A DNA stretch of 64,000 bases from Phycisphaeraceae bacterium (GCA_019636845.1 JAHBWV010000002.1:35655-99654), one strand, 5' to 3'; counted from the stretch's first letter, positions 6,113 through 56,530 are shown. Program-made: numbers and translations. The notes: a model not told the origin generated them from the sequence alone.

Positions 6113-6250
6113 GCAACGAGATCATGCGCCCGAAGCGAGCCGCTGTCGAATGAGAATGTGTCTCAAGCGTCTGAAGGGTGCCGGCGCGTCCTACCATCGA
6201 TCGACAACAGTCCAGGCCGGGCCAAACGCCCTGCCGATGGAGGTTCATCG

Positions 6251-22039: not shown

Positions 22040-22870
22040 TCATTCCAGTGAGGATGGTGCCTGCCCGGTGACCTTCTCCAGTGCCTTCTTCGCGATGTGG
22101 CCGATCACGATGATGACGACGAGCGTCAGGCCGATGCCGGCGAAGATCATCCACTTGGGGCGGGTTTCGGCGGCAGTGGCGACATCCTGGATCTGTGAGG
22201 CAACAAAGACCGCAACACCCGTCCGCGGAGCCATGCCGATCAACGTCCCCAACAAATATGGGAAACGCGGCACCTTCGCCGCAGCCATCACGAGGTTGGT
22301 GAGCGCAAACGGCGAGTTCGGCGGCAGGCGCAGCAACGCCACAATGCCGAGCGTCTTGAAGAAGCCCGAGCCGATCAGTGACTCACGCACCGCCCGCCAC
22401 TTGGGGTGCTCATCGATGATCACCTTCACCTTGTCGCCGGTCGCGCCCCACGCAACGCCGTAGCCGATGAGCGCGCCGCCGAAAAAGCCCGCGAGCGCGG
22501 CCGGAAACCCCGCCGCGAAGCCGAACGCCCACCCGCCCAGCACCGCCTGCGCATACGTCGGCAGCAACGCAAGACCCGCAAGCACCGCGAAGCACCCCGC
22601 GTACAAAAACACCCCGGCAACGCCGTGCGACTGAAGCCAAGGACCCACAATCGTCAGCGTCCCAAGCAGCGCAAAGCCCCCCAGCGGCGGCAACACCGAA
22701 GCAACGATCGCCAAAGGACCCACAGCTCCCGAACGCTTGAACAGTGAGCCGATGGATTCCTTCGCGGGTGGCGTTGTACGGTCAATGGCTTCCTGAACGG
22801 GCGCGGCGGGGGATGAATCTTGAGATTGGTCGGGCGAGGAGCCGGGCGATGGATTGTGGGCGTCGCTCAT
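22040..22870 (-). CDS. TVP38/TMEM64 (DedA-related) family membrane protein
   Basis: It is a multi-TM protein whose core is characteristic of the family (LLPTYAQAVLGGWAFGF...GIVALLRLPPNSPFALTNLVMAAAKVPRFPYLLGTLIGMAP). Confidence 0.85.
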   Translation of the reverse strand: MSDAHNPSPGSSPDQSQDSSPAAPVQEAIDRTTPPAKESIGSLFKRSGAVGPLAIVASVLPPLGGFALLGTLTIVGPWLQSHGVAGVFLYAGCFAVLAGLALLPTYAQAVLGGWAFGFAAGFPAALAGFFGGALIGYGVAWGATGDKVKVIIDEHPKWRAVRESLIGSGFFKTLGIVALLRLPPNSPFALTNLVMAAAKVPRFPYLLGTLIGMAPRTGVAVFVASQIQDVATAAETRPKWMIFAGIGLTLVVIIVIGHIAKKALEKVTGQAPSSLE

Positions 22871-22927
22871 GTCAGGGGGCAGCGTAGGGCGCGGGTTGTC
22901 ATGCGTGCCGCGAGCGATTGTGTTGCG

Positions 22928-23251
22928 TCAGCCCTTCTCGCGTTCGAACGAGGGCTGTTGGCGGCCGTGCCGGAACGCGAGAATCTCAACGAAGCGGTGC
23001 TCATCATCCACGCGAAAGAAGATCGCATAGTCGCCGCGGTTGGCGCGCCTTACCTCGTAGCCCCTCGCAGCGCTGGTTGCGTCGGCAACGGGAAAGCGGC
23101 GTGGCCAGTCGGAGAGCGAGTCGATGAGATGGAGCAGACCATCGAGCCAGTCTTGAAGCCGGTCATCGGCGGTGCCCTGTTTGATCAAGTAGGAGACCTG
23201 TGCGTCGATGGCTTCCTCGACCGCGCGCGGAACGACAACGCGAAAGCTCAT
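22928..23251 (-). CDS. parE: Type II toxin, ParE/RelE superfamily
   Basis: The protein is 107 aa. Its C-terminus (YEVRRANRGDYAIFFRVDDEHRFVEILAFRHGRQ) is typical of ParE. Its ATG overlaps the upstream antitoxin stop (ATGA). Confidence 0.8.
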   Translation of the reverse strand: MSFRVVVPRAVEEAIDAQVSYLIKQGTADDRLQDWLDGLLHLIDSLSDWPRRFPVADATSAARGYEVRRANRGDYAIFFRVDDEHRFVEILAFRHGRQQPSFEREKG

Positions 23252-40372: not shown

Positions 40373-40657
40373 GGGCCACTCCGTAGGTGAGGGGGGGGCG
40401 CGAGGATGTGTTCCACGGCTCCCCCGGCGGTCGGGAAGTGTACACCGGCGGGGGTGGGAGGTGTTGTGGGGCTGGTTCTTGCGCCACGATCTGTGGTGGT
40501 GGCGTGTTTTCCTGTGGGTGGCTTGGGGATTTCGGGGTGGTTTCGGGGTGTCGGTCCGAACCCGGACCTATGGTATTGGTTACGTTGTTGGGGGTGCGGG
40601 AGCCCGATCTCGGGCCTCCGTTGTCCTTTGTCGCCGACTCGGCAGGGAGCTGGACGG

Positions 40658-42658: not shown

Positions 42659-43831
42659 ATGCGCATTGTTCATTGCATGAGGCACATGCTGCTGGAGCAC
42701 GGCGGCGTGGTGCGCGCGGTGTTGGACATCTGCGCGGTGCTCGCGAGCGCCGGGCACGATGTCGAGCTGTGGTGCATCGATGACAAGGACGTGCCCGAGC
42801 CGTGGAAGCGGGGCGAGCCGGGGTTTCCGAGGGTGAGGCGGCTTCCGAGGCCGGGCCTGCCGGGGGCGATGTTCACGGCGGCGCAGTTGCGCGAGATCGG
42901 CGGGATGATGTCGGGCGCGGACGTGGTGCACCTGCACTCGGTCTGGCATATTTCGAACATGCAGATCGCGTCGCGCTGCCGCGCGAGCGGCGTGCCGTAT
43001 GTGGTGAGCATCCACGGGATGCTTGATGACTGGTCGATGGCGCAGCGCCGGACGAAGAAGAAGTTGTTTCTGGGTGTGGGCGGGCGCTCGATGATGGAGC
43101 GTGCGTCGTTTGTTCACTGCACGGCGCAGGCGGAGATGGATCAGAGCAAGAAGTGGTATCCGCGTGGTCGGGGGCGGGTGATACCGCTGGTGTTCGATGT
43201 CTCGCCGTTCCGCGTGATGCCGGGGCGCGGGCCTGCGGAGCGGAAGTTCGCGGCGTTGACGCGCGGGCGTCCGAATGTGTTGTTTCTGAGCCGCCTGCAT
43301 TACAAGAAGGGTGTGGAGCATCTGATCCGTGCGGCGGAGATTCTGCGCGGGCGCGGGGTTTCGATCACGGTGCTTGTGGCGGGGAGCGGGGACCACGAGT
43401 ACGAGCAGCGTCTTCGGTCGCTGGTGTCGGAGCTGAACCTGTCGGAGACGGTTGAATTTCTGGGGATGGTCTCGGGTGTGGAGAAGATCTCGCTGTACGA
43501 GGCGTCGGATGTGGTGGCGTTGCCGACGAGCCAGGAGAACTTCGGGTTTGTGGTGTTCGAGGCGCTGGCCTCGGGGCGGCCGCTGATCACGACGTCGGGT
43601 GTGGACACGTGGCCCGAGATCGAGGCATCCGGGGGCGGGCTGATCGTGGTGCAGGAGGCGGGGGCGATCGCGGAGGCGATCGAGGGGCTGCTTTCGGATC
43701 CGGAGCGACGCGCAAAGATGGGCGCTTCCGGGCGCGAGTGGGTGCTGCGCGAACTTGATCCGGCACGGGTCGTAGAGCGTTTCGTGGCGATGTACGCCGA
43801 GGCGGCAGGTTCGGCACCGACTCGTTCGTGA
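42659..43831 (+). CDS. Glycosyltransferase, GT4-like (GT-B fold)
   Basis: The C-terminal motif is ENFGFVVFEALASGRPLITTSGVDTWPEI (E-x7-E type). The N-terminus is MRIVHCMRHMLLEHGGVV. Confidence 0.85.
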   Translation: MRIVHCMRHMLLEHGGVVRAVLDICAVLASAGHDVELWCIDDKDVPEPWKRGEPGFPRVRRLPRPGLPGAMFTAAQLREIGGMMSGADVVHLHSVWHISNMQIASRCRASGVPYVVSIHGMLDDWSMAQRRTKKKLFLGVGGRSMMERASFVHCTAQAEMDQSKKWYPRGRGRVIPLVFDVSPFRVMPGRGPAERKFAALTRGRPNVLFLSRLHYKKGVEHLIRAAEILRGRGVSITVLVAGSGDHEYEQRLRSLVSELNLSETVEFLGMVSGVEKISLYEASDVVALPTSQENFGFVVFEALASGRPLITTSGVDTWPEIEASGGGLIVVQEAGAIAEAIEGLLSDPERRAKMGASGREWVLRELDPARVVERFVAMYAEAAGSAPTRS

Positions 43832-43900
43832 TCCGTATGTATCCCGAAGCGATTTCGGACGTTCGTCTGGTCCGCGTCATGGTTTCGGCCGATCTGTGAA

Positions 43901-44896
43901 GTGTTTGTGGCCACACCGAGGGTGTGGGTGTGTCCGTCTAGAGTCTTGGTTCCGCTCTGGTGTGGGCGGGCCGGGTTCGTACACGACTTGCGGAGAGCGC
44001 GTTTGGGGAGTCAGAACGGAGAAGCCAGGCACACGAGGGCCCAGCTTGCGCTGCGCGCGGCGTCGCATCGCGCGACGTGGTGGATCGGGCGGACGTTCAA
44101 GCGGTCGGTGCCGCTGGTGTTCGTGGTCGGGTATCCGAAGAGCGGGACGACGTGGATGTGCCAGTTGCTGGCCGAGTGTCTGCAGCTTCCCTTTCCGAGG
44201 TTCTCGCTGCTGCCGATCGGGTGTCCTGCTGTGGTACACGGGCACGACACGGTGGGGGCGCGTGATCCGCGCGGGGTGTACTCGATCCGTGATGGGCGTG
44301 ATGCGCTGGTGAGTTTCTACTTTCACATGGCGCGGCACTTGCCGGAGGGTGATCGGCCCCGGTTGTCGAAGGCCCAGCGGGCGATCTTTCCGGGGCTTGT
44401 GAACAAGAACGATGTGGCGACGAACTTTCCGAGGTTTCTGGAGCGGCAGATGTCGCATCCGACTTCGTGCCGCGTGAACTGGGGTCGGCACGTGGAGTCG
44501 TATCTGAGCACGCGTCGTCCTGACTGGGCGATGCTGCGATACGAGGACTTGCTGTCGAACGGGCATGCCGCGCTGGCGGGTGCTGTGTCGAAGGTGATGG
44601 GGGAGCCGGCGGACGATGAGCGCGTGGCGCGAGCGCTCGACACGTACAGCTTCGCGAGGCAGTCGGGGCGGAGGGCGGGCCAGGAGAACAAGAAGAGTTT
44701 TTTGCGGAAGGGCCAGGCGGGTGACTGGCGGAACTATTTCACGCGCGAGGTGGCGGAGATCTTCGATCGATCGTGCGGGAGTGCGCTGATCGGCGCGGGG
44801 TACGAGCCGGACCGCGCGTGGGTGGAGCGTTGTCCCGCGAGTATCGAGGAGATCGGTGCGATGGCGGGATCTGGCGCCACGGGGGGCGGGGCATGA
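43901..44896 (+). CDS. Sulfotransferase (Sulfotransfer_1-like)
   Basis: The 5'-PSB loop is GYPKSGTTWMCQLL and the 3'-PB motif is FLRKGQAGDWRNYF. The start is uncertain and probably lies downstream of 43901. Confidence 0.8.
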   Translation: MFVATPRVWVCPSRVLVPLWCGRAGFVHDLRRARLGSQNGEARHTRAQLALRAASHRATWWIGRTFKRSVPLVFVVGYPKSGTTWMCQLLAECLQLPFPRFSLLPIGCPAVVHGHDTVGARDPRGVYSIRDGRDALVSFYFHMARHLPEGDRPRLSKAQRAIFPGLVNKNDVATNFPRFLERQMSHPTSCRVNWGRHVESYLSTRRPDWAMLRYEDLLSNGHAALAGAVSKVMGEPADDERVARALDTYSFARQSGRRAGQENKKSFLRKGQAGDWRNYFTREVAEIFDRSCGSALIGAGYEPDRAWVERCPASIEEIGAMAGSGATGGGA

Positions 44897-45774
44897 AGCT
44901 GCCGCGCTTCCTGATCATCGGCGCGATGAAGGCGGGGACGACGACGCTGTATCGCGATCTCCTGGCCAATCCTGCGGTGTACATGCCCCAGGAGAAGGAG
45001 CCGAACAATCTGTGTTCGGACGAGGTGCTGACGGAGCGTGGGCTGCGCGACTATTCGTCGCTGTTCGCGGCGATGAGGGGTGAGCAGGTCGGGGGCGAGG
45101 CGTCCACGAACTACACGAAGATCCCGATGTTCGCGGGCGTGCCGGAGCGGGCGCGGCGCGTGCTCGGCGAGGACGTGCGATTGATCTATGTGCTTCGCGA
45201 GCCGATCTCGCGCGCGATCAGCCATCACGCGCACGCGTTGACGACGGGGTACACCGCGGAGCGGGACTTCAACATCGACGTGAGGCGTCTGGAGCAGTAC
45301 CTGGATTTCAGCCGCTACGCGATGCAGGCATCGGCATGGCTTGATGTGTTCGGTCCGGAGCGGGTGATGCTGGTGCGGTTTGAGTCGTTCGTAGGGGACA
45401 GGCGGGGCACGGTGGAGCGTGTGAGCCGGTTCATCGGGGTGGAGCCGCGTGCGGATCTTGTTGACGAGAGCGCGGTTCACAACAAGACATCGGAGCGTGT
45501 GCGGAACGTCGGTCCGCTGCGTGTGGTGACGGCTTCGCGACCTTACAAGCGGTTCATTCGTCCGCTTCTCTCGCCGGAGGTGCGGACGAGGTTGCGTCGT
45601 ATGGTGCTTCCGAAGGCGGAGATCCATCCGATCGGGCCGACGCCCGAGACGATCGAGTGGATGATCGAGCGTCTGGAACCGGACACGGCGCGTCTGGCGT
45701 CGTTGATGGGGCAGTCCGGGCCGGTGTGGGACGTAGAGAAGGTTCGCAGCAAGTATGCGTCACAGAAGGTGTAG
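44893..45774 (+). CDS. Sulfotransferase (second, distinct family)
   Basis: MKLPRFLIIGAMKAGTTTLYRDL (PAPS-binding loop) ...IYVLREPISRAISHH. The ATG overlaps the preceding stop (ATGA). Confidence 0.8.
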   Translation: MKLPRFLIIGAMKAGTTTLYRDLLANPAVYMPQEKEPNNLCSDEVLTERGLRDYSSLFAAMRGEQVGGEASTNYTKIPMFAGVPERARRVLGEDVRLIYVLREPISRAISHHAHALTTGYTAERDFNIDVRRLEQYLDFSRYAMQASAWLDVFGPERVMLVRFESFVGDRRGTVERVSRFIGVEPRADLVDESAVHNKTSERVRNVGPLRVVTASRPYKRFIRPLLSPEVRTRLRRMVLPKAEIHPIGPTPETIEWMIERLEPDTARLASLMGQSGPVWDVEKVRSKYASQKV

Positions 45775-45780
45775 GGCCAC

Positions 45781-47196
45781 ATGACAGCCGCAGTCGCCAC
45801 CTATCTGCTGTTTCTCTCGCTCCTCCTGGGGCTGCTGATGATGCGCGACCACGTGAAGGGCCGCGTGGAGCTGCTCTCGATCCGGAACTTCGGTCTGGCG
45901 GGATTCATTATCTTTCAGCTGACATCGGCGTCGCTGGCGTTGTACCGGGAGTATCAGCCGCTCTATCCACTGACGGACACGGCGGGGACTGCGGTGAAGT
46001 ACGCGGCGTTCTGCACGGTGTTTCTGATCGTTGCACTCGTGGTGTATCGCGTGGGTCCCGGTGTGTCGAAGCTTGTGCGTCTGGTGCCGACATCGCGAGC
46101 GGTTCCGAACGAACCGTTCATGTGGCTGGTGGCGGCGATTCTCGCGTTCATGGCACTTGCCCTGCGGACGATGGTCCGCGTGCCGCTGGTCGCGGTGCTG
46201 GCGGACTATGTGGGAACGGCGTTCGCGGCGATCGCGTGCGGGCTGGCGGGGTGGATCTGGGCGAAGCGTTTCCTGAATCCGGCCGCGGCGACGTACGCCA
46301 TGCTGATCTTTCTGGCGTGCTCGGCGTCGGTGATCCTCGGGTCGTTCGGTCGGCGCGGGCTCGTGGCGGTGGGCGCGGGGATGTTGTGGGGGATGTATTA
46401 CTCACGCTGGCGTTTCAACGAACCGAAGCGGATGCTCGTCCAGTTGTCGCTGGTGGCGGCGGTCCCGATCGTCGCGCTCGCGTTGTTCACGTCTGTGCGT
46501 TCGTCGCGTGAGCACGATCGCGGGGTCGGGGAGCACGTGAGCGCGATCACATCTGGCGGGAGTCTCAAGGCGGGGCTTGAGATGCTGTTGGATGGGCAGG
46601 GGACGGGCTCGGTGAGCATGTGGCTCTCCGAGCAGTATCCGGATAATTACGCGTATCGGTGGTTCCATACGCCGAAGTACTTTGTGGTGTTCCCGGTGCC
46701 CAGGGCGTTGTGGAGGGGAAAGCCGGACGCGTTGAGCGAGCGGATCGCGACGATGGCGAATCGCTCGGGCGTCGATCGGAGTCGGCTGAAGGTCGGCCCG
46801 GGGATCATCGGGCATGCCGCGGCGGAGGGGGGCTGGATCGCGATCGTGTTCTACGGGATTCTTGCGGGGCTTGTGCTGAGGTTCTTCGACGAGATCGTGA
46901 GGCAGAGTCCGTACTCGCCGTTTGTGGTGCTGCCGGTGGGCGCGGCTCTTGGCCAGATCATCGGCCTGTCGCGTGGCGAGACGGCTCCGTTCTTGTTCAA
47001 CTATGTGTTCGGCGTGTTCGGCTCGTACTTCACGCTGATCATGGTCGCGAAGTTCGTGGAGCGGATCGGGCTGGCGCGGCCGGGTGATGGGTCGGAGCAG
47101 GGGGTCGCGCACTCGGATGAGTATGAGCAGTGGGAGGGATACGGCGACGAGACGCAGGACTCTTCCGGGTATGGAGATGAGCGGCAGGCGGGCTGA
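45781..47196 (+). CDS. Multi-pass membrane protein, O-antigen polymerase (Wzy)/EpsG-like
   Basis: It has about 10 or more hydrophobic helices and sits between the sulfotransferases and the flippase. The family assignment rests on context and topology only. Confidence 0.5.
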   Translation: MTAAVATYLLFLSLLLGLLMMRDHVKGRVELLSIRNFGLAGFIIFQLTSASLALYREYQPLYPLTDTAGTAVKYAAFCTVFLIVALVVYRVGPGVSKLVRLVPTSRAVPNEPFMWLVAAILAFMALALRTMVRVPLVAVLADYVGTAFAAIACGLAGWIWAKRFLNPAAATYAMLIFLACSASVILGSFGRRGLVAVGAGMLWGMYYSRWRFNEPKRMLVQLSLVAAVPIVALALFTSVRSSREHDRGVGEHVSAITSGGSLKAGLEMLLDGQGTGSVSMWLSEQYPDNYAYRWFHTPKYFVVFPVPRALWRGKPDALSERIATMANRSGVDRSRLKVGPGIIGHAAAEGGWIAIVFYGILAGLVLRFFDEIVRQSPYSPFVVLPVGAALGQIIGLSRGETAPFLFNYVFGVFGSYFTLIMVAKFVERIGLARPGDGSEQGVAHSDEYEQWEGYGDETQDSSGYGDERQAG

Positions 47197-47218
47197 TCGG
47201 CTTGTTGATCGGTAGGCA

Positions 47219-48838
47219 GTGGAGGTTCGAGTGTCTTCGGAAGCCAAGCGCGGCGCGGTGCGAATCGCGTCCAACTACACCCGCCTTCTCACCAATGTTG
47301 TGCTTGGGCTTGTGTCTGTCAAGATCCTGGTCGAGGTCGCGGGCGACAGCGGCTTCGGGCTGGTCTCTACGCTGGGCGCGACGACGGGGATCGCGAACCT
47401 GACGGAAGAGACGGTGCGGCGTTCGATGATCCGGGAGCTGGGATCCGCGCTGCACAACGAGGATCGGTCGGTCTTCACGCGGGTCTTCAACACGGCGCTG
47501 CTGCTCGCGGGCGGGATGTCGCTGATCACGCTTTCTGTGTTCGGGCTGATCATGCTCTGTCTGTGGCAGGGGTGGATCTTCGAGATCGATCCGCCCTCTC
47601 TGATCGAGGCCGCGTACTGGCTGGTTGCGTGGAAGGCGGCGGAGTCCGTGGTTGATGTGCTGCTCTCGCCGATCATCAATGTGTATATTGCCAGCGAGCG
47701 GATGCGGGCGTTCAACGGGTGGATGATGTTGCAGCGGCTGGCGCGGCTCGCGGCGGCGCTCGGGTTGTTCTTCTATTACGGGAGCGGAGCCGACCCGGCG
47801 ACTGCGCTCAAGACCTACGCGATGGTCGGGGCGATTCTGTATATCTCGGCGAACCTGACGGCCGCACTGACGATGATGCTCTTTGTTGAGGGGCGTACGC
47901 GTCCGCGTCCGTGGCTTGCGCGGCGGTCCGAGCTGCCGGGCCTCGTGACGGTGGGCAAGTGGAACATGGCGATGTCCACGGCCCAGAACCTGCATCTGCG
48001 GGCGGATCAGATCATCACCAACTCGCTCTTCGGGCTCATCTACAACACGTCGTTCGGGTTGGCGATGCAGCTGACGAGTTATGTGCGGATGCTGACGGTC
48101 GGCATGACGGACGGGTTGGACGCGGTGACGGCGCGTCTGTCGATCAAGAAGGGCGAGGAGTCGGTGCGCGACCTGGTGCGCCACTCGACGCGTCTGCACG
48201 CGTTTGTGTCGATCCCGACGGGGATCGGCATGTTGATTCTTGCCGAGCCCGCGCTGGATGTGTGGGTGGGCGCGAACCTTCAGAATCGTGCGATGGTGAT
48301 CTCGCGGGCGACGATCATCATGCAGATCATCGTCCTCGGCGTGACGCTGCGGGCGATCTCGGACGGTTGGATCCGCATCCTGTACGGCGCGGGTCATATC
48401 CGGAGTTACGCGCTGCCGATCGTGGCGTTGAGTTTCCTGAATCCGGTTGTGGCGATCGTGCTGGCGAAGACGATGCCGGCGGATGTGGCGTATCTCGGTC
48501 CGCCGATCGCGTTCTCGCTGGTGACGGCGATCATCAGTGCGGTTGTGGTGCCGTTGATCGGCGGACGCTGTCTGGGCGTGAGCCCGTGGGCGTTGGCGGC
48601 TCCGATCGTGAGACCCGGCGCGGTGGCGATTGTGTCGGCCCCGATCCTGATGCTGGCGATTCGTTACGTGCCGTCGTGGAATCTGCTGTGGCTGGGCGCA
48701 ACGTGCGGGGCGTATGCGATGGTGGTGACGGTGCTGTGCGTGCGGTTCGCGATGACACAGCAGGAGCGCCAGCGTTTCCGCGGCGCGATCATGCGGAGGT
48801 TGGGGCGTGGTGGGGGGCGTGGGGCCGGGCGCGTTTGA
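47219..48838 (+). CDS. Polysaccharide flippase (MOP/Wzx-like)
   Basis: It has about 12-14 TM helices. The N-terminus NYTRLLTNVVLGLVSVKILVEVAG...FGLVSTLGATTG is typical of oligosaccharide flippases. Confidence 0.6.
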   Translation: MEVRVSSEAKRGAVRIASNYTRLLTNVVLGLVSVKILVEVAGDSGFGLVSTLGATTGIANLTEETVRRSMIRELGSALHNEDRSVFTRVFNTALLLAGGMSLITLSVFGLIMLCLWQGWIFEIDPPSLIEAAYWLVAWKAAESVVDVLLSPIINVYIASERMRAFNGWMMLQRLARLAAALGLFFYYGSGADPATALKTYAMVGAILYISANLTAALTMMLFVEGRTRPRPWLARRSELPGLVTVGKWNMAMSTAQNLHLRADQIITNSLFGLIYNTSFGLAMQLTSYVRMLTVGMTDGLDAVTARLSIKKGEESVRDLVRHSTRLHAFVSIPTGIGMLILAEPALDVWVGANLQNRAMVISRATIIMQIIVLGVTLRAISDGWIRILYGAGHIRSYALPIVALSFLNPVVAIVLAKTMPADVAYLGPPIAFSLVTAIISAVVVPLIGGRCLGVSPWALAAPIVRPGAVAIVSAPILMLAIRYVPSWNLLWLGATCGAYAMVVTVLCVRFAMTQQERQRFRGAIMRRLGRGGGRGAGRV

Positions 48839-48845
48839 GGGAGCT

Positions 48846-50066
48846 TTATCGCGGGGCAAGTGTGTGGAGTTCGATGGAGACGGCGCGGTGGTCCGAGCCG
48901 GGGAAGCGGCGCGTTGACCACGAGACGATGCGGAAGTGATCGCTGACGAGCGCGTCATCGATCGCAACCCGGAGCGGCCAGGGCGCCCATGAGGGGTATG
49001 TGCCGTCGGGGGCGAGTGGCTGCTTGGCGCGGCGCAGGCCGATCGCGTTGAGGTGCGAGGTTCTCGCCCCGAGCGGGGTCGCGTTCAGGTCGCCGATGAC
49101 GAGGACGGGGAATCCAGCATCAAGCATGGAGCGGGCGGTTCGGGCCGCGTCCATTGCGGTTCGATTGCCGCTTCGCCAGCGCGCGGGCGCCCACGGGGAC
49201 GAGGCGTGGAGCGCGACGATTCCGATGGGTCCGTCGGGGTGGTGGAGGATCGCGCCGAGCACGCCGCTTGGTTGGGGTTGCTGATCTGGCGGTGTATCAA
49301 GGGGCCAGGGCTCGATGGGCCACTTCGAGAAGGCCTTGATCCACTGTGTGTAGGGCGGGTTTGGTGGCGCGACGACACGATGGAGATTGCTGAGCGCGCT
49401 GCCCGACCTGATGGAGCGGGAGAGTTCGGCGGGGCACTCGAGAAGGACCGCAAGGTCGAGATCGGTGTTGTTGATGGCGTCGTGGATCGCGCTGTGGTTC
49501 GGATTGTCGGCGCGGGCGTTGAGCTGGAGGATGCGGAGGGACGGGGGCGTGCGTGCCGGGGCGGTGGCGGCGCGCTGACCGGGCGAGAGGAGGATGAAAA
49601 GGATCCAGGCGCAAGCCGCGGCGTTGAGGGCGAGGAGCGCGATGTGTCGCACGCGGAGCGCGATGGCTGCGGCAATGAGTGTGAGGGGGAGCGCGAGGGT
49701 GAGTGTGTCGCGCAGGAGTGAGGGGATCCAGAAGTGGTGCGCGAGCGTGGCGGCGAGAAGCACCCAGAGCGAGGGTGTGAGGAGGAGGCAGAGGCGAGCG
49801 GCGGGCACTGGGCGTCGTTCTGGGACGTGGGTGGATGCCGACGTGTGGTCCCCTGTGGTGGCGTTGGTGTTTGTGGGGCCCATAACGGCGGCTTTCAATG
49901 GGAGAAGGTTGTGCGGGATAGTCGGGTCCGAGTTTGCGATGAGGCGTTCAAGATGGGCAAGAGATCGGGCACGATTTGCCTTCATATTCGATGATTGATC
50001 TTTGGATGGGTCTACCTCGCGTGCGTGTACGCGATCGAACCAGTTGAGGAAGTGCCATGCTCTCAC
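48846..50066 (-). CDS. Endonuclease/exonuclease/phosphatase (EEP) family protein with N-terminal TM helices
   Basis: LRILQLNARADN..., VLVIGDLNATP, and the C-terminal SDHRAVSIEL. Alternative start at ATG 49985. Confidence 0.75.
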   Translation of the reverse strand: MRAWHFLNWFDRVHAREVDPSKDQSSNMKANRARSLAHLERLIANSDPTIPHNLLPLKAAVMGPTNTNATTGDHTSASTHVPERRPVPAARLCLLLTPSLWVLLAATLAHHFWIPSLLRDTLTLALPLTLIAAAIALRVRHIALLALNAAACAWILFILLSPGQRAATAPARTPPSLRILQLNARADNPNHSAIHDAINNTDLDLAVLLECPAELSRSIRSGSALSNLHRVVAPPNPPYTQWIKAFSKWPIEPWPLDTPPDQQPQPSGVLGAILHHPDGPIGIVALHASSPWAPARWRSGNRTAMDAARTARSMLDAGFPVLVIGDLNATPLGARTSHLNAIGLRRAKQPLAPDGTYPSWAPWPLRVAIDDALVSDHFRIVSWSTRRFPGSDHRAVSIELHTLAPR

Positions 50067-52186
50067 TCACACCGTTCTCTACGAGGAACCTCGGACCACG
50101 GCTCGCCGCAGCGTCGCTGGCGATTGCCGCGATCGCGCTGGGTGCGGCTGCCCAGGGCGACTTTGCCGTGAGCGCGGGGTATGAAGCGGGGAAGATCGCG
50201 GTTCGGGATGCGCGTGATGCGGGTCCGATCGTGATGCAGCGGAACCTGCCGCTGTGGGAGGACAACGCGGGCGGTCAGTCGCTGGCACCGACGATCGAGT
50301 TCGTTCCTCAGCAGACGGGGTACGACCTGATCTACACGTTCACGAACACGTCGTCGTTCCCGAAGAAGCAGGGGCAGATGCGCGTGGGCGTGTTCACGCT
50401 GGGATCCGAGGTGCGGGTTCTCGACGGCGGCTTCAAGAGCGGCAACGAGCGGCTCGACAAGGCGGACGGGTACAAGGTGTACGCGCGGTACTACCCGCTG
50501 AACATGTACTCGCCGGTGTGGATGCTGCGTGACAGCCGCTACGCGGTGGGCGTGTCGGTTCAGTACCCGGTGCTCGAGTACCAGCACGATCTGAGATTCA
50601 GCATGCGTCGTTCGGCCGGCGCGACGGCGAGCGGCGAGGGCGGTGTGGGCTGGTGGGTGGAGATCCGTCTGTCGAACAATCTTGCTGACACTCCGGACTC
50701 CGGCCTTCGGTACGAGGCGATGATCCCGCCGGGCGAGACGCGCCGGTATGTGGTGAGTGTGCGGGCGACGAACGTGTCGAACGAGTGGATGCGGACGCTG
50801 ACACCGTACCGGACGTTCTTCCGCTCGACCTATGGCGGCGTTCGCTACGAGCGGAAGCCGATGCCGATCAACGCGGTCTCGCTCGCGGTGGATGAGGCCG
50901 TGAGCAACGAGAACCCGTACGGCTGGAACCGTCACGTGCAGCGCAGCCCCGACGTGCACGGCTGGGGCAAGTGGGTTGACGACCTGTCGTCGCGTTCGGG
51001 CTGGAGCGGTTTCATGCTCTGGAAGCCGACGGGGGTGTTCAAGAACAACCAGTCTCTGAACTTCCCGTTCCAGTTCACGTCGCGCTGGCTCGAGAACGAG
51101 AACATGCGGACCGCGCTGGACTCGAGGAACGGCCTTCCTTCGCTGATCAGGAAGTCGGGGAAGAAGGAGCTGGGATTGTGGTGGGGTCGCGCGTGCCAGG
51201 TGATGACCGCGTGGGACGACGGCAAGTTTGAGCCGCTGGATCCGGACAACCCCGCGCACGTGCAGGCGGCTCTGAAGGAGATGGGTCTTGCGGCCCAGGC
51301 GGGCGCGACGATCATCGGGCTCGACACGTTCACGCACCGCTACACACCGACGTGGAAGCTCTACACATGGCTTCAGCGGCTGCAGTTCATCCACCCGCAG
51401 ATGCGGTTCATCATCGAGCCGGTCGCGTGCGACATCATGCACACGCTGGCACCGATGTGGCTGCGCGGGTTCGACGACAAGCTCATTCCCGAGTCGGTGG
51501 AGGATCTCTACCAGATCAAGAGCCCGCACTACATGGCGGACTTCCTTCTCCCGGGTCACGAGCTGTGGGCGGGGTTCCGGTACTACGGCCACACGCGTTA
51601 CTTCGGGATTGAGGTGACCCAGGAGCGGATCCACAACGACATGCGTCTGTACGCCTCGTACGGGCACGTACCGGTCTTCTTCGTGGACGGCTCGCTGACG
51701 GACGACAGCATCCGGGCCGCGAAGTCCTGGCTGACCAGCGTCCCGGCGGATCTTCAGATCTCCGAGTCCGAGTGGCGGGCGAGCCCAGCGCCCGGGCTGA
51801 CGATCGGGATGTCCGGCTCAACGGGCCTTGTGGATGAGCAGACGTTCGCGAGCGATCAGTCCAATCAGTTGCCGGGTAGCGGGATGGGCGAGACGCCGGG
51901 CTCGCGCCTTCAGATGGGGCCGCAGCGCGATGGCGCGCCTCCGATGTCGCTGATGATGCAGGACAACAGCGGGCGCGGCCCGACGATCAACCACTCCGAT
52001 GTGGCGCGGGCCCTTCAGCGTGCGGCGATGACGAGGACGGGCGGTCTGGCAGCGGCCTCGCCCAATCTGCCCGCTCAGATCCGCACCGGGAACCAGACGA
52101 ATCTGGCGCCGAGGACAAGCGGCGTGGTGATCTACAGCGGCCGAGCACCGAGACAGAGCACGGTCGTGGTTGCCGGCAACGAGTGA
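50057..52186 (+). CDS. Large secreted hypothetical protein (709 aa)
   Basis: It has a signal-peptide-like N-terminus (LAAASLAIAAIALGAAAQG), a long frame with balanced composition (many W/Y/F/N), and a low-complexity C-terminal tail. I recognise no family. Confidence 0.7.
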   Translation: MLSLTPFSTRNLGPRLAAASLAIAAIALGAAAQGDFAVSAGYEAGKIAVRDARDAGPIVMQRNLPLWEDNAGGQSLAPTIEFVPQQTGYDLIYTFTNTSSFPKKQGQMRVGVFTLGSEVRVLDGGFKSGNERLDKADGYKVYARYYPLNMYSPVWMLRDSRYAVGVSVQYPVLEYQHDLRFSMRRSAGATASGEGGVGWWVEIRLSNNLADTPDSGLRYEAMIPPGETRRYVVSVRATNVSNEWMRTLTPYRTFFRSTYGGVRYERKPMPINAVSLAVDEAVSNENPYGWNRHVQRSPDVHGWGKWVDDLSSRSGWSGFMLWKPTGVFKNNQSLNFPFQFTSRWLENENMRTALDSRNGLPSLIRKSGKKELGLWWGRACQVMTAWDDGKFEPLDPDNPAHVQAALKEMGLAAQAGATIIGLDTFTHRYTPTWKLYTWLQRLQFIHPQMRFIIEPVACDIMHTLAPMWLRGFDDKLIPESVEDLYQIKSPHYMADFLLPGHELWAGFRYYGHTRYFGIEVTQERIHNDMRLYASYGHVPVFFVDGSLTDDSIRAAKSWLTSVPADLQISESEWRASPAPGLTIGMSGSTGLVDEQTFASDQSNQLPGSGMGETPGSRLQMGPQRDGAPPMSLMMQDNSGRGPTINHSDVARALQRAAMTRTGGLAAASPNLPAQIRTGNQTNLAPRTSGVVIYSGRAPRQSTVVVAGNE

Positions 52187-52261
52187 GCCGAATCAACAGA
52201 GAATGATCGTGAGGGCGGGTTCCGTGCGGAGCCCGCCCTCTTTATTTGTGAAGGTGTTTCG

Positions 52262-54970
52262 TTATGGCCTCAGAAAGCTGAGCGAGCGGAGCAGGGCGCG
52301 TCTGGCGGGGGTGTCGAGGGCGCGGTCTTCGATGATCTGCCCACCGAACCAGTTCATGGCGGCGCAGCGGATCTCGAGCCCGAGGCCATCGATGCCGGAG
52401 CCGTCGTCGAAGCGGATCGAGGTCGGTGGATGGAGAAGCGTTGCGACGAGCGGGCCGCCATCGACGCGGACCATCTCACGCACCGGCGCGGCGCAGAGCG
52501 AAGCGGAGATCTGGAGATCGGCACCCGGGCCGGGGCGCGCGATCGAGAGGAGGACGGGCGAGTTTCGAGTCCAGACGACGCCGTCGAGCCGGAGACGGGC
52601 CACGAGCGTTCCGTTCCTGGTGATGTCGGCCTCGGCGGCGTGCGCAGCGGTATCGGCGTAGATGGTGAGCCGTTCATTGCCATCGCCCGCGATGGTGGCG
52701 AGCGGCCAGCGGTGACCGGGGCCGACGGGGACGGCCAGATCCCAGCCGCTGTCGGGGAGCATGCCCGCGAGCGAGATGGTCCACGCGCTTCCCGGGGCGA
52801 AGCCCTCGACCACGGCGCGTTCGTCGGGGAGCGCGGAACCGGTCTGCGAGAGTGATGTGTCGGGCGGCGCGGGGTAGCCGGCAAAGCCCACGCCTTCGGC
52901 GAAGAGGTCTGTTGCGAGATAGAAGGACTGCGCATCGGCTGTGGAGCCGGACCTGATGCGGAGAACGGGGCGTTGCCCGGCGGGGATGGGGGCGTCGAGG
53001 GCGAGATCAACGGGGAGCCATGACATCGTGGTGTTCGCGTTCGGGAAGCGCGTGACGATGACGCCTGCCGCGTTGGGCTTGAGTTCGATGCGAGGCGTCA
53101 TGGCCTTGGACTCGAGGGCGTTCAGGAGCCAGATGCGTCCGATGATGCGATCGGTGCCGAGCGTCTGTCCCATGGTCGGAGAGGCGATGGGGAAGAGGTC
53201 GCCGATGCGGGTGTCGGCCGAGCCGGCAAGTCCTGTGAGTTTCCAGACGGGGCCGGCGCAGGGGGGTTGCGGGTCGAGGGGTGTTCCGCCATCGACCCAG
53301 CGTCCGAGGGCGTCCTTTGTGAGCGGCACGACGGTGCCGCCCGCAAAGGGGGTGAAGGTGGGATTCGGGACAAGGCGTTGCATCGCACCGGGTCCGACGG
53401 CGAGGGGGTGTGCGGAGTGGAGGGTCGGCCTTGTGGTGCGTCGGAGTCCGAGTCGCGAGACGGGGTCGGAGTCGATGTAGATGTGTGAGCCGTGGACGGC
53501 TGCGGACCATGCGCTGCCGGTATCGGGGGCGAACGCCTGGGCCCAATCGATGCCGTTCTCCGAGTACAGGGCGCGGCGAATCTGCGGCGGCACGGGCTCG
53601 GAGAGCACCTGCGGGTCGTAGGTTGCGACGTAGGGTCCGGCGCGTTCGGGCGTGGGCGTTCTGATGACGAAGTTCTGGCTGTTGCGTCCGTCGGACCACG
53701 GCCCGCCGTAGAGGCGCCAGTGGCGTGCGACGGGTCCGGTGGCATCGAGCATCATGATCTGCTCGTAGCAGAGATCTGAGCCGAGGATCATCAGGCCGTT
53801 GGCGGGGCCGGGTGCGAGGCCGACGAACTGGTTGCCGGAGGTCGGTTGCGGGTCTGTGCCCGCCGCGGAACCGTGGAAGGATTCGTTGGCTGTCCATCCC
53901 GAGGCGGCGACGGCTTCGCCTCCCTTGTCGAGGGCGACGATGCGATTGAACTGTTGTGTGTCGCCGATGGCGACGATGGCGCGGAGGCCGGAGGGGGTTG
54001 GGAAGATCCCGGCGGTGTGGGCGTGCTGTCCCGCGCCGGCGACGGGTGTTTCGTAGAAGCGGACGGGGGGAGAGATGATCCAGGGCGAGCCGGGGGCGGG
54101 GCGTGTGGCACGGAAGCCGTAGGCGCGCCCGCCATCGCAGCCGGGCTTGGAGCGATAGTCTGCGGCGGCGAAGTAGGCATCGAGCGGTTGGAGCGAGTCG
54201 GAGGCGGGCCACCAGTTCTGCATCGACCATTCACGGACGCGGTCTCGGTTCTCCTGGACGATGGTGTCTTCGAAGGCGACGGTCCAGGTTGTGCCACGGT
54301 CCTGAGAGACAACGATGGCGGTTGCGCCGGTGTTCCACGCGCTGAAGGGTGGAACGGGCTGTCGCGAGACCGCGCAGAAGAGAACGATCAGCCCGTGGCA
54401 GACGGCGCCTGCGCGCGGGTCGTAGCGTCGGTTGGCGACGGTGCCCTGCATGACGTCGACGCCGCCTCCGATGCCGAGTGGTGTTCGGATGCGTCCGATG
54501 CCGGTGGATTCGGCGAGCATGAGCGCGTCGTCGGCTCCGACGAAGACATCGAGCACGCCGGCGGTGGAATCGGTGAGCACGAGCAGCGGGGTTGTGCCGT
54601 CGTGATCGAAGCCGGAACCGATGATGGTGGTGCTGCGTGAGCCGGGGCGCACGTCCTGCACCTCGACCGCGCCGGCGATGGTTGTTCGCGGCGCGAAGCG
54701 CGGCGCATCAGGTCCGATCGGCTCGCCGTTCCATTGCCAGGTTGGTTGGGGGCGATCGACCCTGAAGGTGAGTCCGGGAGAGCCGACGAATGCGCCGTCG
54801 AAGATGAAGCGGAGTGGCTCTCGCACCTCGGTTGTGTTGGATGCGGGCGAGTGGGTGCCGGTCGAGCCCGCGCCGGACTGGCGGACGCGGAGCGGCTGGG
54901 CGTCGGCGGAGAGGCACACAGCCGCGGGAAGGAATGAAGCCAAGAGTGTGAGCGCGCCGCGCAGGAACAT
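52262..54970 (-). CDS. Large secreted protein with a BNR/Asp-box motif (sialidase-like beta-propeller candidate)
   Basis: The start is ATG 54970 (MFLRGALTLLASFLPAAVCLSADAQ signal peptide). A perfect Asp-box SQDRGTTW is present, plus a weaker one (SENGIDW). The upstream 125 codons of ORF 52262-55345 were rejected. Confidence 0.7.
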   Translation of the reverse strand: MFLRGALTLLASFLPAAVCLSADAQPLRVRQSGAGSTGTHSPASNTTEVREPLRFIFDGAFVGSPGLTFRVDRPQPTWQWNGEPIGPDAPRFAPRTTIAGAVEVQDVRPGSRSTTIIGSGFDHDGTTPLLVLTDSTAGVLDVFVGADDALMLAESTGIGRIRTPLGIGGGVDVMQGTVANRRYDPRAGAVCHGLIVLFCAVSRQPVPPFSAWNTGATAIVVSQDRGTTWTVAFEDTIVQENRDRVREWSMQNWWPASDSLQPLDAYFAAADYRSKPGCDGGRAYGFRATRPAPGSPWIISPPVRFYETPVAGAGQHAHTAGIFPTPSGLRAIVAIGDTQQFNRIVALDKGGEAVAASGWTANESFHGSAAGTDPQPTSGNQFVGLAPGPANGLMILGSDLCYEQIMMLDATGPVARHWRLYGGPWSDGRNSQNFVIRTPTPERAGPYVATYDPQVLSEPVPPQIRRALYSENGIDWAQAFAPDTGSAWSAAVHGSHIYIDSDPVSRLGLRRTTRPTLHSAHPLAVGPGAMQRLVPNPTFTPFAGGTVVPLTKDALGRWVDGGTPLDPQPPCAGPVWKLTGLAGSADTRIGDLFPIASPTMGQTLGTDRIIGRIWLLNALESKAMTPRIELKPNAAGVIVTRFPNANTTMSWLPVDLALDAPIPAGQRPVLRIRSGSTADAQSFYLATDLFAEGVGFAGYPAPPDTSLSQTGSALPDERAVVEGFAPGSAWTISLAGMLPDSGWDLAVPVGPGHRWPLATIAGDGNERLTIYADTAAHAAEADITRNGTLVARLRLDGVVWTRNSPVLLSIARPGPGADLQISASLCAAPVREMVRVDGGPLVATLLHPPTSIRFDDGSGIDGLGLEIRCAAMNWFGGQIIEDRALDTPARRALLRSLSFLRP

Positions 54971-55100
54971 GCCTCTCTCCGGATGGTGCGGCGGCGGGGA
55001 GTGCGAGCGCCGTCGTATGGAATATACGGGCGGGATCGCGTGCCGCCAGAGAATCCGGCGAAACAGCGTTCGACATCGCGGAAATGGCGAGCGGGACGGG

Positions 55101-56078
55101 TTATCTGTCGGTTTGGGAGATGGCTTCCCACTGGGCACGCAGGCCGGACTCGAGGGTGGTTCTCGGACTGTATCCGAGTTCGGCTGCGCTCCGGGTGAGG
55201 TCTGCCCAGGTACGTTCGACATCGCCGGGTTGGGGCGGGCGGTGCTCGATGGCGGGCTCGGTGCCGGCGACGCGCCCGATGGAGGCGATGAGCTGGTTGA
55301 GGGTGACGGGGGCGTTGCCGCCGAGGTTCCAGATGCGGTAGCCATGCGCGTCGATGCGCTGGTAGGAGGCGAGGACGCCGGAGACGATGTCGTCGATGAA
55401 GGTGTAGTCGCGGCTGGTGTTGCCGTTGCCGAACATCGGGATGGGCTTTCCGGCGCGGAGGAGCTTCATGAACTTGGAGATGGCCAGATCGGGCCGCTGG
55501 TCGGGGCCGTAGACCGTGAAGAAGCGGAGCATGGCGATGGGTGTGCCCGTGAGGCGGTGGTGGGAGAAGGCGAGGAGCTCGCAGGCGCGTTTGGTCGCGG
55601 CGTAGGGGCTGATGGGGCTCTCGACCGGGTCGTCTTCGGCGAAGGGGACCTTGGTGTTGTTGCCGTAGACGGAACTGCTCGAGGCGATGATGACGCGTGC
55701 GCAGCCGGCGCGGGATGCGGCATGCAACACGCTGGCGGTGCCGGTCACGTTGGCGTGCGCGTAGCCGATGGGGTCTTCGATGCTGGGGCGCACGCCGGCT
55801 TTGGCGGCGAGGTGGATGATCCCCTCGACGCGGTGCTCCTTGAGGAGGGATTCGATGCGGGGAGTGTCGTTGATGTCTGCCCGGACGGGGGTGTAGGCGT
55901 CGGGGTGCTGGGCACGGGTGCGCTCGTCGGCGCGCTGCTTGATCGCGGGGTCGTAGAAGGGGTCGAGGTTGTCGATGCCGACGACTCGGGCGTTGCGTGT
56001 GAGCAGGGCACGGCAGAGGTGTGAGCCGATGAAGCCGGCTGCGCCCGTGACCAGAATCGAACGATCATTCCATTCCAT
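55101..56078 (-). CDS. NAD-dependent nucleotide-sugar epimerase (UDP-glucuronate 4-epimerase-like SDR)
   Basis: ILVTGAAGFIGSHL, the catalytic YAATK, and RFFTVYGPDQRPDLA. The start is ATG 56078 (MEWNDRS). Confidence 0.9.
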   Translation of the reverse strand: MEWNDRSILVTGAAGFIGSHLCRALLTRNARVVGIDNLDPFYDPAIKQRADERTRAQHPDAYTPVRADINDTPRIESLLKEHRVEGIIHLAAKAGVRPSIEDPIGYAHANVTGTASVLHAASRAGCARVIIASSSSVYGNNTKVPFAEDDPVESPISPYAATKRACELLAFSHHRLTGTPIAMLRFFTVYGPDQRPDLAISKFMKLLRAGKPIPMFGNGNTSRDYTFIDDIVSGVLASYQRIDAHGYRIWNLGGNAPVTLNQLIASIGRVAGTEPAIEHRPPQPGDVERTWADLTRSAAELGYSPRTTLESGLRAQWEAISQTDR

Positions 56079-56530
56079 GAGCCGCTCCGGTCTCTGTGCT
56101 CGCAGAGAGGCATTTGTACGCATGGGGCGAGCGGCTGTGCGTGGATCGGGGACGATTGGCGTGGCTGAGAAAGAAGCAGGGCGCCATCTATTCGACAGCG
56201 CCCCGCTGGAGGAGAGAGAGATCCTGTTTGAACAACATTGTGCTTATCGGGCCAGTATCAGAATCGCTACACACATTTGTTGCAACTTTTCCGTCTACTT
56301 TCCTGTCTTTTCCACAAATTCGCTTGACTTAGGTGTGTTCGATGATCCTTACGTGGCGGTTTGTGCGCGGTTCGGCGCGTCGCACAGGGGTTGCTTCCTC
56401 ACACGCGAGAGCGCGAGCCGAGATCCGCAAGACGAGCGCGATTCGTGCAAGTCATGCGCAGAAACGGCCATATTTCTTCATAAATCGCGTCGCTCTTGCG
56501 CTCTCGGGAGAGTTTGTGCGCTTTGACAGC

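Follow-up and report, generated by a model that had tools for sequence, protein, structure and literature searches.

A Phycisphaerales locus with two distinct sulfotransferases, predicted to build a sulfated surface or secreted polysaccharide

Known sulfated-polysaccharide clusters and the layout of the locus

Bacterial sulfated polysaccharides have long been considered essentially cyanobacterial, and the Phycisphaerales are mostly regarded as organisms that break down the sulfated glycans of algae. The characterized analogue of the locus described here is the xss cluster on plasmid pSYSM of Synechocystis sp. PCC 6803, which underlies the sulfated exopolysaccharide synechan (Maeda et al. 2021, PMC8205485); synechan accumulation depends on XssA (PMC8205485). 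Sulfotransferase genes also occur in the capsule loci of Vibrio sp. KMM 8419 and Cobetia marina KMM 1449 (PMC11641403, PMC11766843), in a putative sulfated GAG cluster of Pontiella sulfatireligans, a member of the same PVC superphylum (PMC7356697), and in a sulfated-glycan cluster of Actinoplanes missouriensis (PMC13390465). By their descriptions, these four loci resemble ours in having sulfotransferases embedded in polysaccharide clusters. None of them comes from Planctomycetota, and our literature search found no paper linking Phycisphaerae with sulfotransferases. The mechanism is not new, and several loci of a similar kind have been described.

The window is a stretch of 64,000 nucleotides from a Phycisphaeraceae bacterium of the order Phycisphaerales (GCA_019636845.1 JAHBWV010000002.1:35655-99654). 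At 65% G+C the sequence yields many spurious open reading frames, and real genes were picked by GC3. The glycan cluster spans positions 42659-56123 and encodes a GT4 glycosyltransferase, two sulfotransferases (ST1 and ST2), a Wzy-like protein, a Wzx flippase, an EEP phosphoesterase, two secreted proteins and an SDR epimerase. Gene calls and Pfam searches placed every gene named in the initial annotation where it had been reported. The genes for transketolase (tkt), GT4 and ST1-ST2-Wzy-Wzx form a single unit on the + strand, with gaps of 6-30 nt and an ATGA overlap, while the EEP, GH-like and SDR genes sit on transcription units separate from this left operon. No sigma-70-type promoter was found between 40000 and 57000, a test that is uninformative for a planctomycete host.

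The transketolase gene (40658..42628, + strand; NCBIfam NF004559, 1e-187) lies 30 nt upstream of the GT4 gene, and the two are probably co-transcribed. Because the two genes adjoin only in the nearest relatives (L004, L014 and L015), we rejected transketolase as a member of the glycan pathway. The GT4 enzyme (42659..43831, + strand) is the only glycosyltransferase in the locus. It is a GT-B protein whose assignment is supported by Pfam Glycos_transf_1 (4e-33) and Glyco_trans_4_4 (7e-21); its best NCBIfam matches, both below cut-off, are the EPS glycosyltransferases HpsP and XYAG1. Neither a TM segment nor a signal peptide was found in it, and since it lacks a TM segment we take it to be cytoplasmic.

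Our comparison indicates that the locus works like xss without being an xss orthologue, only ST2 having a match there (XssA). Both are Wzx/Wzy-type clusters with two sulfotransferases of distinct subfamilies. In both, GT4 enzymes are present, the genes run locally as ST-Wzy-...-Wzx (with a candidate Wzy here), the OPX gene lies outside the cluster, and an exosortase-associated gene is found in or near the system. In contrast, xss has eight glycosyltransferases, whereas this locus has one, and the PCP, the priming transferase and the XssQRS regulators are missing here. ST1 has no counterpart in xss by sequence, no sequence similarity of the Wzy-like and Wzx proteins to XssF and XssH was detected, and overall GT4, ST1, Wzy and Wzx show weak or no similarity to xss proteins. 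The EEP and GH-like genes are not found in xss, and synechan is without uronic acid (PMC8205485). Pfam and profile searches within our locus returned no priming transferase, PCP or OPX/export gene; it also holds no STAND or two-component regulator.

Judging from sequence, the most likely product of the cluster is a surface or secreted polymer that is doubly sulfated and contains uronic acid. We propose a five-step Wzx/Wzy pathway, to which, taken as a whole, we assign a probability of about 0.7. The SDR 4-epimerase would make UDP-galacturonate from UDP-glucuronate, and nucleotide sugars would be built onto undecaprenyl phosphate, with an unlinked priming transferase starting the chain and the GT4 enzyme extending it. 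ST1 and ST2, acting in the cytoplasm, would add sulfate from PAPS at two positions before export. Wzx would then flip the unit and the Wzy-like protein would polymerize it, after which the polymer would leave through the genome's only Wza/Wzc pair. The product may be processed, trimmed or released by the GH-like enzyme, which would be periplasmic or secreted, and by the membrane-anchored EEP. We infer in what order these steps run, which substrates are used, that the polymer contains uronic acid, how many sulfates it bears and what the GH-like and EEP proteins do.

A check of PAPS supply found genes for ATP sulfurylase and APS kinase elsewhere in the genome. Also encoded there are two UDP-sugar 6-dehydrogenases and priming transferases, one of them WbaP-like (C1:2277704-2279452) and others WecA-like. 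The only Wza/Wzc pair lies in an exosortase locus with the order Wza-EpsH-...-Wzc-SDR-WecA-like (L093). Since the cluster has one glycosyltransferase and no priming transferase, PCP or OPX, we assume a functional link between it and these unlinked priming and export genes.

Two sulfotransferases of different subfamilies

ST1 (~44003..44896, + strand) is a SULT-like PAPS-dependent sulfotransferase. Its start is uncertain within 43901-44036, and the product on record has 297 aa. It matches Sulfotransfer_1 at 1.8e-25 (90.3 bits, against a curated cut-off of 22) and carries the motifs YPKSGTTWM and RKGQAGDWRNYF. Across 120 homologues, PKSGTTW, His81, RDGRD..S and RKGxxGDW are conserved at 95% or more; from its position relative to the motifs, we infer that His81 is the counterpart of the SULT catalytic base His108. 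The closest PDB entry is SULT2B1b (8e-10).

ST2 (44893..45774, + strand) is of the XssA type and resembles heparan sulfate (HS) 3-O-sulfotransferases (3-OSTs). It matches both Sulfotransfer_3 (1.2e-13; 52.2 bits, cut-off 27) and Sulfotransfer_1 (2.8e-11; 43.7 bits, cut-off 22) and contains the motif IIGAMKAGTTT. Its PDB matches include 3rnl (1e-20) and HS 3-OSTs (1e-7). Residues K13, T16, R102, R107 and S110 are conserved in the family and align to HS 3-OST, as does the conserved E36 (KEP), a putative catalytic base, which aligns with the EP of AEPHFF in 3-OST-3. With 32% identity to XssA (E 1.7e-39), ST2 is a clear homologue of that protein, a relation newly found here.

The ATG of ST2 (44893-44895) overlaps the TGA of ST1 (44894-44896). 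The initial annotation had described two different PAPS-type sulfotransferases joined by this ATGA, with PKSGTTW/RKGxxGDW in ST1 and GAMKAGTT in ST2, and both the arrangement and the motifs hold. An ATGA overlap is nothing unusual within an operon, but the one between ST1 and ST2 is kept in relatives. Residues for catalysis and for PAPS binding are found, and conserved, in the two families: each protein keeps the 5'-PSB and 3'-PB motifs and a predicted catalytic His or Glu. No signal peptide or TM segment was found in either. These features point to two intact PAPS-type sulfotransferases of different subfamilies; carbohydrates are their predicted acceptors.

Sulfotransferases may also act on lipids, small metabolites or protein tyrosine, in which case their position in a glycan cluster would be incidental. 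Among solved structures, ST1 comes closest to cytosolic small-molecule enzymes, the steroid and phenol sulfotransferases, and to Teg14, and the roughly 15 sulfotransferase matches of this genome occur in varied contexts. However, ST2 is homologous to HS 3-O-sulfotransferases and to XssA, its closest characterized homologue, which serves sulfated exopolysaccharide synthesis (PMC8205485). In addition, ST1 overlaps both the upstream GT4 gene and ST2 by 4-14 nt in relatives, and a Wzy gene accompanies the sulfotransferases in all 20 sulfotransferase-bearing loci of our survey (20/20; see below). A non-glycan substrate is thus highly improbable, and we retain sulfation of a glycan as the proposed function of both enzymes. 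The initial annotation had named two refuting conditions, missing catalytic residues and homologous loci acting on non-glycan substrates; we checked for both, and neither outcome was seen.

Polymerase candidate, flippase and processing proteins

The flippase (47219..48838, + strand) is of the Wzx type (MOP superfamily), as first proposed: it matches Polysacc_synt_3 (8.3e-7; 29 bits, cut-off 23) and MatE (5.7e-4) and has at least nine hydrophobic segments. The preceding gene (45781..47196, + strand) encodes the polymerase candidate, the weakest call in the locus. A polytopic membrane protein is in place where a Wzy/EpsG-like polymerase had been suggested, and its AF2 model (pLDDT 89.7) is all-helical with about 12 TM helices, but the Wzy matches are weak (1e-3 to 1e-4). 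They comprise the WzyE NCBIfam (1.3e-4) and a sub-threshold Wzy_C match at 46309-46497 (1e-3). The protein itself has no Pfam match, and its profile found nothing meaningful among PDB sequences; a search of 52 homologues gave 8 hits to Wzy Pfams (WzyE 4, O-ag_pol_Wzy 4). The sole confident fold match is the WaaL ligase 7tpg (probability 0.99), at a TM-score of 0.31-0.35.

Given this match, the same enzymology could yield an LPS O-antigen, or a lipid- or protein-anchored glycan, through a WaaL-type ligase instead of Wza/Wzc. Neither Wzc nor Wza is encoded in the locus, O-antigen clusters typically lack priming transferase and export genes, and the genome contains two stronger Wzy_C genes (ligase or polymerase family), one of them beside a WecA-like transferase. 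Against this, the Wzy-like family has no invariant His of the WaaL kind, and a Wza/Wzc/priming-transferase locus exists for which no other Wzx/Wzy partner was found. Moreover, processing enzymes of the GH type are a typical feature of EPS operons, and xss makes a released EPS, likewise with an unlinked OPX (PMC8205485). We consider a ligase-attached product unlikely and favor export through the Wza/Wzc pair.

The EEP gene (- strand, 48846..49982 or 50066, depending on the start) encodes a membrane-anchored phosphoesterase, in line with its earlier description as an EEP-family membrane enzyme. It matches Exo_endo_phos at about 1.3e-12 (48.3 bits, cut-off 24.5), and the catalytic Asn/Glu/Asp/His set (N156, E182, D298, N300, D342, D364 and H365) is conserved in 34 homologues. 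Three N-terminal TM helices precede a catalytic domain predicted to be periplasmic. No PDB sequence match was found, and a literature search returned no EEP proteins in EPS clusters.

The initial annotation had left both large secreted proteins without a function. The 709-aa one (50057..52186, + strand) can now be described, from its model, as a glycoside-hydrolase-like protein, a finding new here, whereas the 902-aa one stays without an assigned fold. The AF2 model of the former (pLDDT 83, core above 90) comprises a signal peptide, a beta-sandwich, a (beta/alpha)8 barrel and a disordered tail. Foldseek matched it to GH129, GH36, GH31, GH101, PelA and GH191, with E down to 6e-11, and D423, D459, D495 and E502, invariant in the family, are candidate catalytic acids. 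It shares the beta-sandwich and barrel with PelA (GH166), GH129, GH36 and GH31, and, like PelA and PslG, it is secreted and placed in a polysaccharide locus. In contrast, it has no sequence similarity to PelA or clan GH-D-type enzymes, and TM-scores are only about 0.4; searches found no Pfam or PDB sequence match and no GH family by sequence. The fold parallels hydrolases of EPS operons such as PelA.

The 902-aa protein (52262..54970, - strand) has a signal peptide and a single Asp-box (SQDRGTTW), which is insufficient to make it a sialidase-like propeller. The start near 54970 is preferred over a 1027-aa reading of the ORF at 52262-55345, because the signal peptide begins there and the N-terminus of the longer form overlaps the SDR gene in another frame. 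Its core has no Pfam or PDB match, even via 30 homologues. The family counts 135 representatives in a set of 1.84 billion proteins, and a dockerin, TSP3 or Laminin_G_3 tail is present in some of them. Only in L004 and L014 does the gene adjoin the cluster, which places it outside the conserved set of genes.

The SDR protein (55101..56123, alternative start 56078, - strand) is a nucleotide-sugar 4-epimerase (Epimerase, 2.5e-58). Its PDB matches are 5u4q (3e-67), the B. cereus UDP-GlcA 4-epimerase UGAepi (6zl6, 3e-53) and MoeE5 (2e-52), against only 1e-33 to 1e-42 for GalE, whose NCBIfam match is below cut-off. As had been proposed, it is closest to solved UDP-glucuronate 4-epimerases, and not to GalE or dehydratases.

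Conservation of the locus in Phycisphaerales

Relatives with 58-70% ST1 identity show the same gene order, GT4-ST-ST-Wzy-Wzx-...-EEP(-)-GH-like(+)-SDR(-), and the core genes (GT4, sulfotransferases, Wzy-like, Wzx, EEP, GH-like and SDR) are syntenic in many Phycisphaerales species. We surveyed species loci anchored on the GH-like alignment, 55 of which had enough flank. Single-protein tblastn under-detected the relatives' sulfotransferases, and we used iterated HMMs instead, which also recovered XssA and XssE. A Wzy-like gene was present in 40/55 loci, one to four sulfotransferases in 20/55 and Sat or CysC in 7/55; EEP lay beside the GH-like gene in 29/55, and an SDR followed the latter in 30/55. 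Some Phycisphaerales core loci carry no sulfotransferase. Even within the family the locus has a patchy distribution, and the GH-like gene is absent from five genomes of one sister genus.

These data bear on whether only GT4-ST1-ST2-Wzy-Wzx is biosynthetic, the EEP, GH-like, 902-aa and SDR genes being neighbors with separate, for instance degradative or envelope, roles; the uronic acid and processing inferences would then not apply. The latter genes occupy convergent or divergent transcription units, with a strong hairpin terminator (52211..52240; 13-bp stem, 10 G-C pairs, T-rich tail) between the convergent GH-like and 902-aa genes. The GH-like gene lacks a detectable Wzy gene in 15/55 loci and also occurs alone or as tandem paralogues, the 902-aa gene is restricted to the closest relatives, and its dockerin-bearing relatives suggest a degradative or cell-surface role. 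Yet even in relatives with only about 35% identity the block EEP(-)/GH-like(+)/SDR(-) still comes right after Wzy/Wzx, a persistence far beyond that of chance neighbors, and an SDR epimerase is nothing unusual in a polysaccharide cluster. We accordingly give a purely left-operon pathway a low probability and treat the EEP, GH-like and SDR proteins as part of the proposed pathway.

The Pfam-less Wzy-like protein, the predicted periplasmic EEP and the new GH-like family, found only in Phycisphaerales-type records, form a conserved Phycisphaerales-specific trio. The single glycosyltransferase, the unlinked priming transferase, the UDP-uronate 4-epimerase and the two sulfotransferases, one of them HS-3-OST-like, prompt a more speculative reading, which we rate as rather improbable: the product would be a glycosaminoglycan-like polymer with a disulfated disaccharide repeat of uronic acid and (amino)sugar, and the trio would be an unrecognized polymerization/release module. 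If the trio is such a module, Phycisphaerales lineages may plug in or swap decoration genes on it, either sulfotransferases with ATP sulfurylase or methyltransferases. In any case, the locus provides a testable context for two families that lack annotation, the Wzy-like membrane and the GH-like secreted proteins.

The initial annotation had called carbohydrate sulfotransferases uncommon in bacterial clusters of this kind. They are rare in model bacteria, but this does not extend to Phycisphaerales, where Sulfotransfer_1 has 2-17 matches per genome. The present genome has about 15 sulfotransferase matches against only 3 sulfatase-family matches; taken with the complete PAPS route and the conserved locus, these counts suggest that the order also includes producers of sulfated polymers. 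Such production would matter for the cycling of carbon and sulfur in the sea, for the matrices of particles and biofilms, and for obtaining heparin-like materials from microbes. Two of the relatives that share the full gene order carry ATP sulfurylase, extra glycosyltransferases and up to five sulfotransferases inside the cluster.

Organization of the locus

The window has a G+C content of 65% and contains many spurious ORFs; genes were therefore selected by third-position G+C first and by domain content second. The left arm consists of co-directional genes, all on the forward strand, encoding a transketolase (about 40658-42628), a GT4 glycosyltransferase (42659-43831), a SULT-like sulfotransferase, ST1 (about 44003-44896), an XssA-type sulfotransferase, ST2 (44893-45774), a 471-aa Wzy-like polytopic membrane protein (45781-47196), and a 539-aa MOP-type flippase, Wzx (47219-48838). 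Neighbouring genes of this arm lie 6-30 nt apart, with the exception of about 70-170 nt ahead of ST1, and ST1 and ST2 overlap through an ATGA sequence (ATG at 44893; TGA ending at 44896). The right arm encodes a membrane-anchored protein of the endonuclease/exonuclease/phosphatase family (EEP; 48846-49982 or 50066, reverse strand), a 709-aa secreted glycoside hydrolase (GH)-like protein (50057-52186, forward strand), a secreted 902-aa protein (52262-54970, reverse strand), and an SDR (55101-56123, reverse strand). A strong hairpin at 52211-52240, with a 13-bp stem containing 10 G-C pairs, separates the convergent genes for the GH-like and 902-aa proteins and is likely a bidirectional terminator. 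Since the flanking genes, dnaN and bamA on the left and Mrp/NUBPL, SnoaL, and FabG-like on the right, are all unrelated, we place the bounds of the locus at about 42659 and 56123. Pfam and NCBIfam confirmed all of the families that the initial annotation had named for this locus, and the sulfotransferase motifs it quoted are present. On the 5' side of its conserved start, the transketolase ORF continues for about 84 codons (40406-40657); this Gly/Cys/Trp-rich extension is probably not translated.

Two sulfotransferases and the comparison with synechan

ST1 is similar to cytosolic SULTs (SULT2B1b, 8e-10), and its GYPKSGTTW motif (5'-PSB loop), H81, the RDGRD...S strand-helix, and RKGxxGDW show at least 95% conservation across 120 aligned homologues. 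ST2 matches 3rnl, a bacterial sulfotransferase of known structure (1e-20), and heparan sulfate 3-O-sulfotransferases (1e-7); its residues Lys13, Glu36, and R102/R107/S110 occupy the catalytic and PAPS-binding positions when aligned with these enzymes and are all conserved among its close family. Judged by these residues, ST1 and ST2 are predicted to be intact enzymes from two different subfamilies. Neither a signal peptide nor a TM segment was found in ST1 or ST2, and sulfation would therefore be cytoplasmic.

We compared these proteins with those of the synechan (xss) cluster for sulfated EPS on the Synechocystis plasmid pSYSM. ST2 shares 32% identity over 236 residues with the synechan sulfotransferase XssA (E 1.7e-39), while ST1 has no counterpart in that cluster. 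Deletion of xssA abolishes EPS accumulation (PMC8205485). In the synechan cluster, two sulfotransferases from distinct subfamilies accompany Wzx and Wzy, and the OPX gene is unlinked (PMC8205485); the present locus likewise places a two-subfamily pair beside Wzx and Wzy-like genes. The initial annotation had named two grounds for abandoning a sulfated glycan as the product, namely missing catalytic residues and homologous loci that modify non-glycan substrates; because the ST1 and ST2 motifs are intact and ST2 is homologous to XssA, which is needed for EPS, we found neither. ST2-like sulfotransferases also occur in 218 plasmid records, chiefly from Sinorhizobium, Phaeobacter, and other Roseobacter-group bacteria, where they often adjoin GT2 genes, as in Rhodovulum (38% identity).

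The proposed mechanism builds on observed gene identity, motif integrity, XssA homology, synteny, and genomic precursor supply. Its remaining steps are inferred by analogy with Wzx/Wzy pathways and synechan. The polymer may be an EPS or capsule or else an O-antigen, and the EEP, GH-like, and SDR proteins of the right arm may act on it. Clusters for sulfated polysaccharides that include sulfotransferase genes have been described in cyanobacteria (xss; PMC8205485), marine Gammaproteobacteria (PMC11641403, PMC11766843), and Actinoplanes (PMC13390465), and a putative one has been described in Pontiella (PMC7356697). A literature search for papers linking Phycisphaerae to sulfotransferases found none. 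This kind of cluster is already known, and the additions made here are modest: a GH-like family that is putatively new, and an EEP protein as its conserved partner.

Membrane, secreted, and epimerase-like proteins

The 471-aa Wzy-like protein has no Pfam match of its own. It gives a weak match to the WzyE NCBIfam (1.3e-4), and its gene contains a weak Wzy_C match (1e-3). The 52 members of its family gave eight hits to Pfam WzyE or O-ag_pol_Wzy (best 7.6e-8), and its confident AF2 model (pLDDT 89.7) has the O-antigen ligase WaaL as its sole high-probability PDB neighbour (probability 0.99, TM 0.31-0.35). These four weak lines agree. We place the protein in the Wzy/WaaL superfamily, the least secure assignment in the locus, and consider it most likely to be a polymerase. 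For the SDR, solved UDP-glucuronate 4-epimerases (B. cereus 6zl6, 3e-53; MoeE5, 2e-52) score far above GalE.

At the sequence level, neither Pfam nor PDB holds a relative of the GH-like protein. Its predicted model, which is confident (pLDDT 83, core above 90), comprises an N-terminal beta-sandwich and a (beta/alpha)8 barrel, with Foldseek matches to GH129, GH36, GH31, GH101, PelA, and GH191 (E down to 6e-11, TM about 0.4) and invariant residues D423, D459, D495, and E502. We read this model as suggesting a new glycoside-hydrolase-like family. The EEP protein retains the full catalytic residue set of its superfamily, and the distribution of charges around its three TM helices suggests a periplasmic EEP domain. 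The 902-aa protein belongs to a small family, with 135 representatives at 50% identity among 1.84 billion proteins; it carries one Asp-box, some relatives have dockerin, thrombospondin-3, or Laminin_G_3 tails, and no family assignment was reached for its core.

Genomic supply and variation among relatives

For PAPS supply, which the initial annotation had proposed to check, the genome (3.67 Mb, 4 contigs) encodes ATP sulfurylase (contig C1:3016104-3017306) and APS kinase (C1:3017364-3018251) as divergent neighbours with a third sulfotransferase alongside. This island, outside the window (G000:C1:3013270-3018251, G000 being the source genome), also encodes a secreted protein that ends in VPAPGSLAVLGAAGLLGARRRR, PEP-CTERM-like by eye, and has no Pfam match. 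Because the sulfotransferase-ATP sulfurylase pair lies within the glycan cluster in relatives, it seems to have been split from that cluster by rearrangement in the present genome.

For priming, the genome has one WbaP-like transferase, which stands by itself, and two UDP-sugar 6-dehydrogenases would supply uronic acid. For export, the sole Wza gene is located in an exosortase locus (L093, G000:C1:2965001-2985000) with the order Wza, EpsH exosortase, DUF3485, 1520-aa TPR, 737-aa Wzc-like, SDR, WecA-like, ParA-like ATPase, and MurJ; the synechan cluster, for its part, includes a cyanoexosortase-associated gene (22553-22993 of the fetched locus L094). Together, these pieces could make a complete Wzx/Wzy pathway, a link between them that we infer.

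Planctomycetes usually present a sulfatase-rich picture. The present genome reverses it: its 3.67 Mb contain 15 Sulfotransfer_1 matches (about 14 loci) and only 3 matches to sulfatase families. Several of its sulfotransferase ORFs are 500-650 aa long and may therefore be fusions.

ST1 has 369 homologues in the protein collection (E <= 0.001), the named ones coming from Phycisphaerales or Planctomycetota MAGs, and we read the gene contexts of three relatives. The closest (70% identity) has the order dnaN-tkt-GT4-ST-ST-Wzy-Wzx-ST-EEP-GH-like-895aa. The other two (about 60% identity) carry a larger cluster that begins with ST, ATP sulfurylase, SDR, GT4, GT2, and hexapeptide acyltransferase and continues with ST, GT4, ST, ST, Wzy-like, Wzx-like, GT4, ST, EEP (reverse strand), GH-like (forward), and SDR (reverse); in both, the overlaps of GT4 with ST1 and of ST1 with ST2 are retained.

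When one genome was scanned for each species, 79 loci proved to carry the GH-like gene; every one of them bears the label Phycisphaerales, Phycisphaeraceae, Phycisphaerae, Planctomycetota, or uncultured. Using HMMs built here, we counted genes in the 55 loci with at least 8 kb upstream. The Wzy-like gene accompanies the GH-like gene in 40 of the 55 and is undetectable in 15; GT4 occurs in 34, SDR in 30, EEP in 29, Wzx in 18, one to four sulfotransferases in 20, and Sat (ATP sulfurylase) or CysC (APS kinase) in 7. Some species carry two or three tandem GH-like paralogues (loci L027, L068, L071, and others).

In the complete genome of Phycisphaerales bacterium ac7 (L077, CP159477.1, 1-11455), the backbone includes a methyltransferase and no sulfotransferase: SDR, GT4, GT2 fusion, hexapeptide transferase, SAM methyltransferase, split ATP sulfurylase, GT4, Wzy-like, and GH-like. 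The ATP sulfurylase is split across two frames (5684-6376 and 6174-6872), and this lineage may have lost sulfation, with methylation in its place. We therefore regard the backbone as a polysaccharide locus typical of the lineage, with sulfation as a variable decoration. Its distribution is patchy: in a phylum-wide sample of 401 genomes, 5 carried the GH-like gene, and five genomes of a sister genus lacked it. The order Phycisphaerales is characteristically rich in sulfotransferases, with 2-17 Sulfotransfer_1 matches per genome compared with 0-5 in the other orders of the class and a match in 2 of 14 control genomes.
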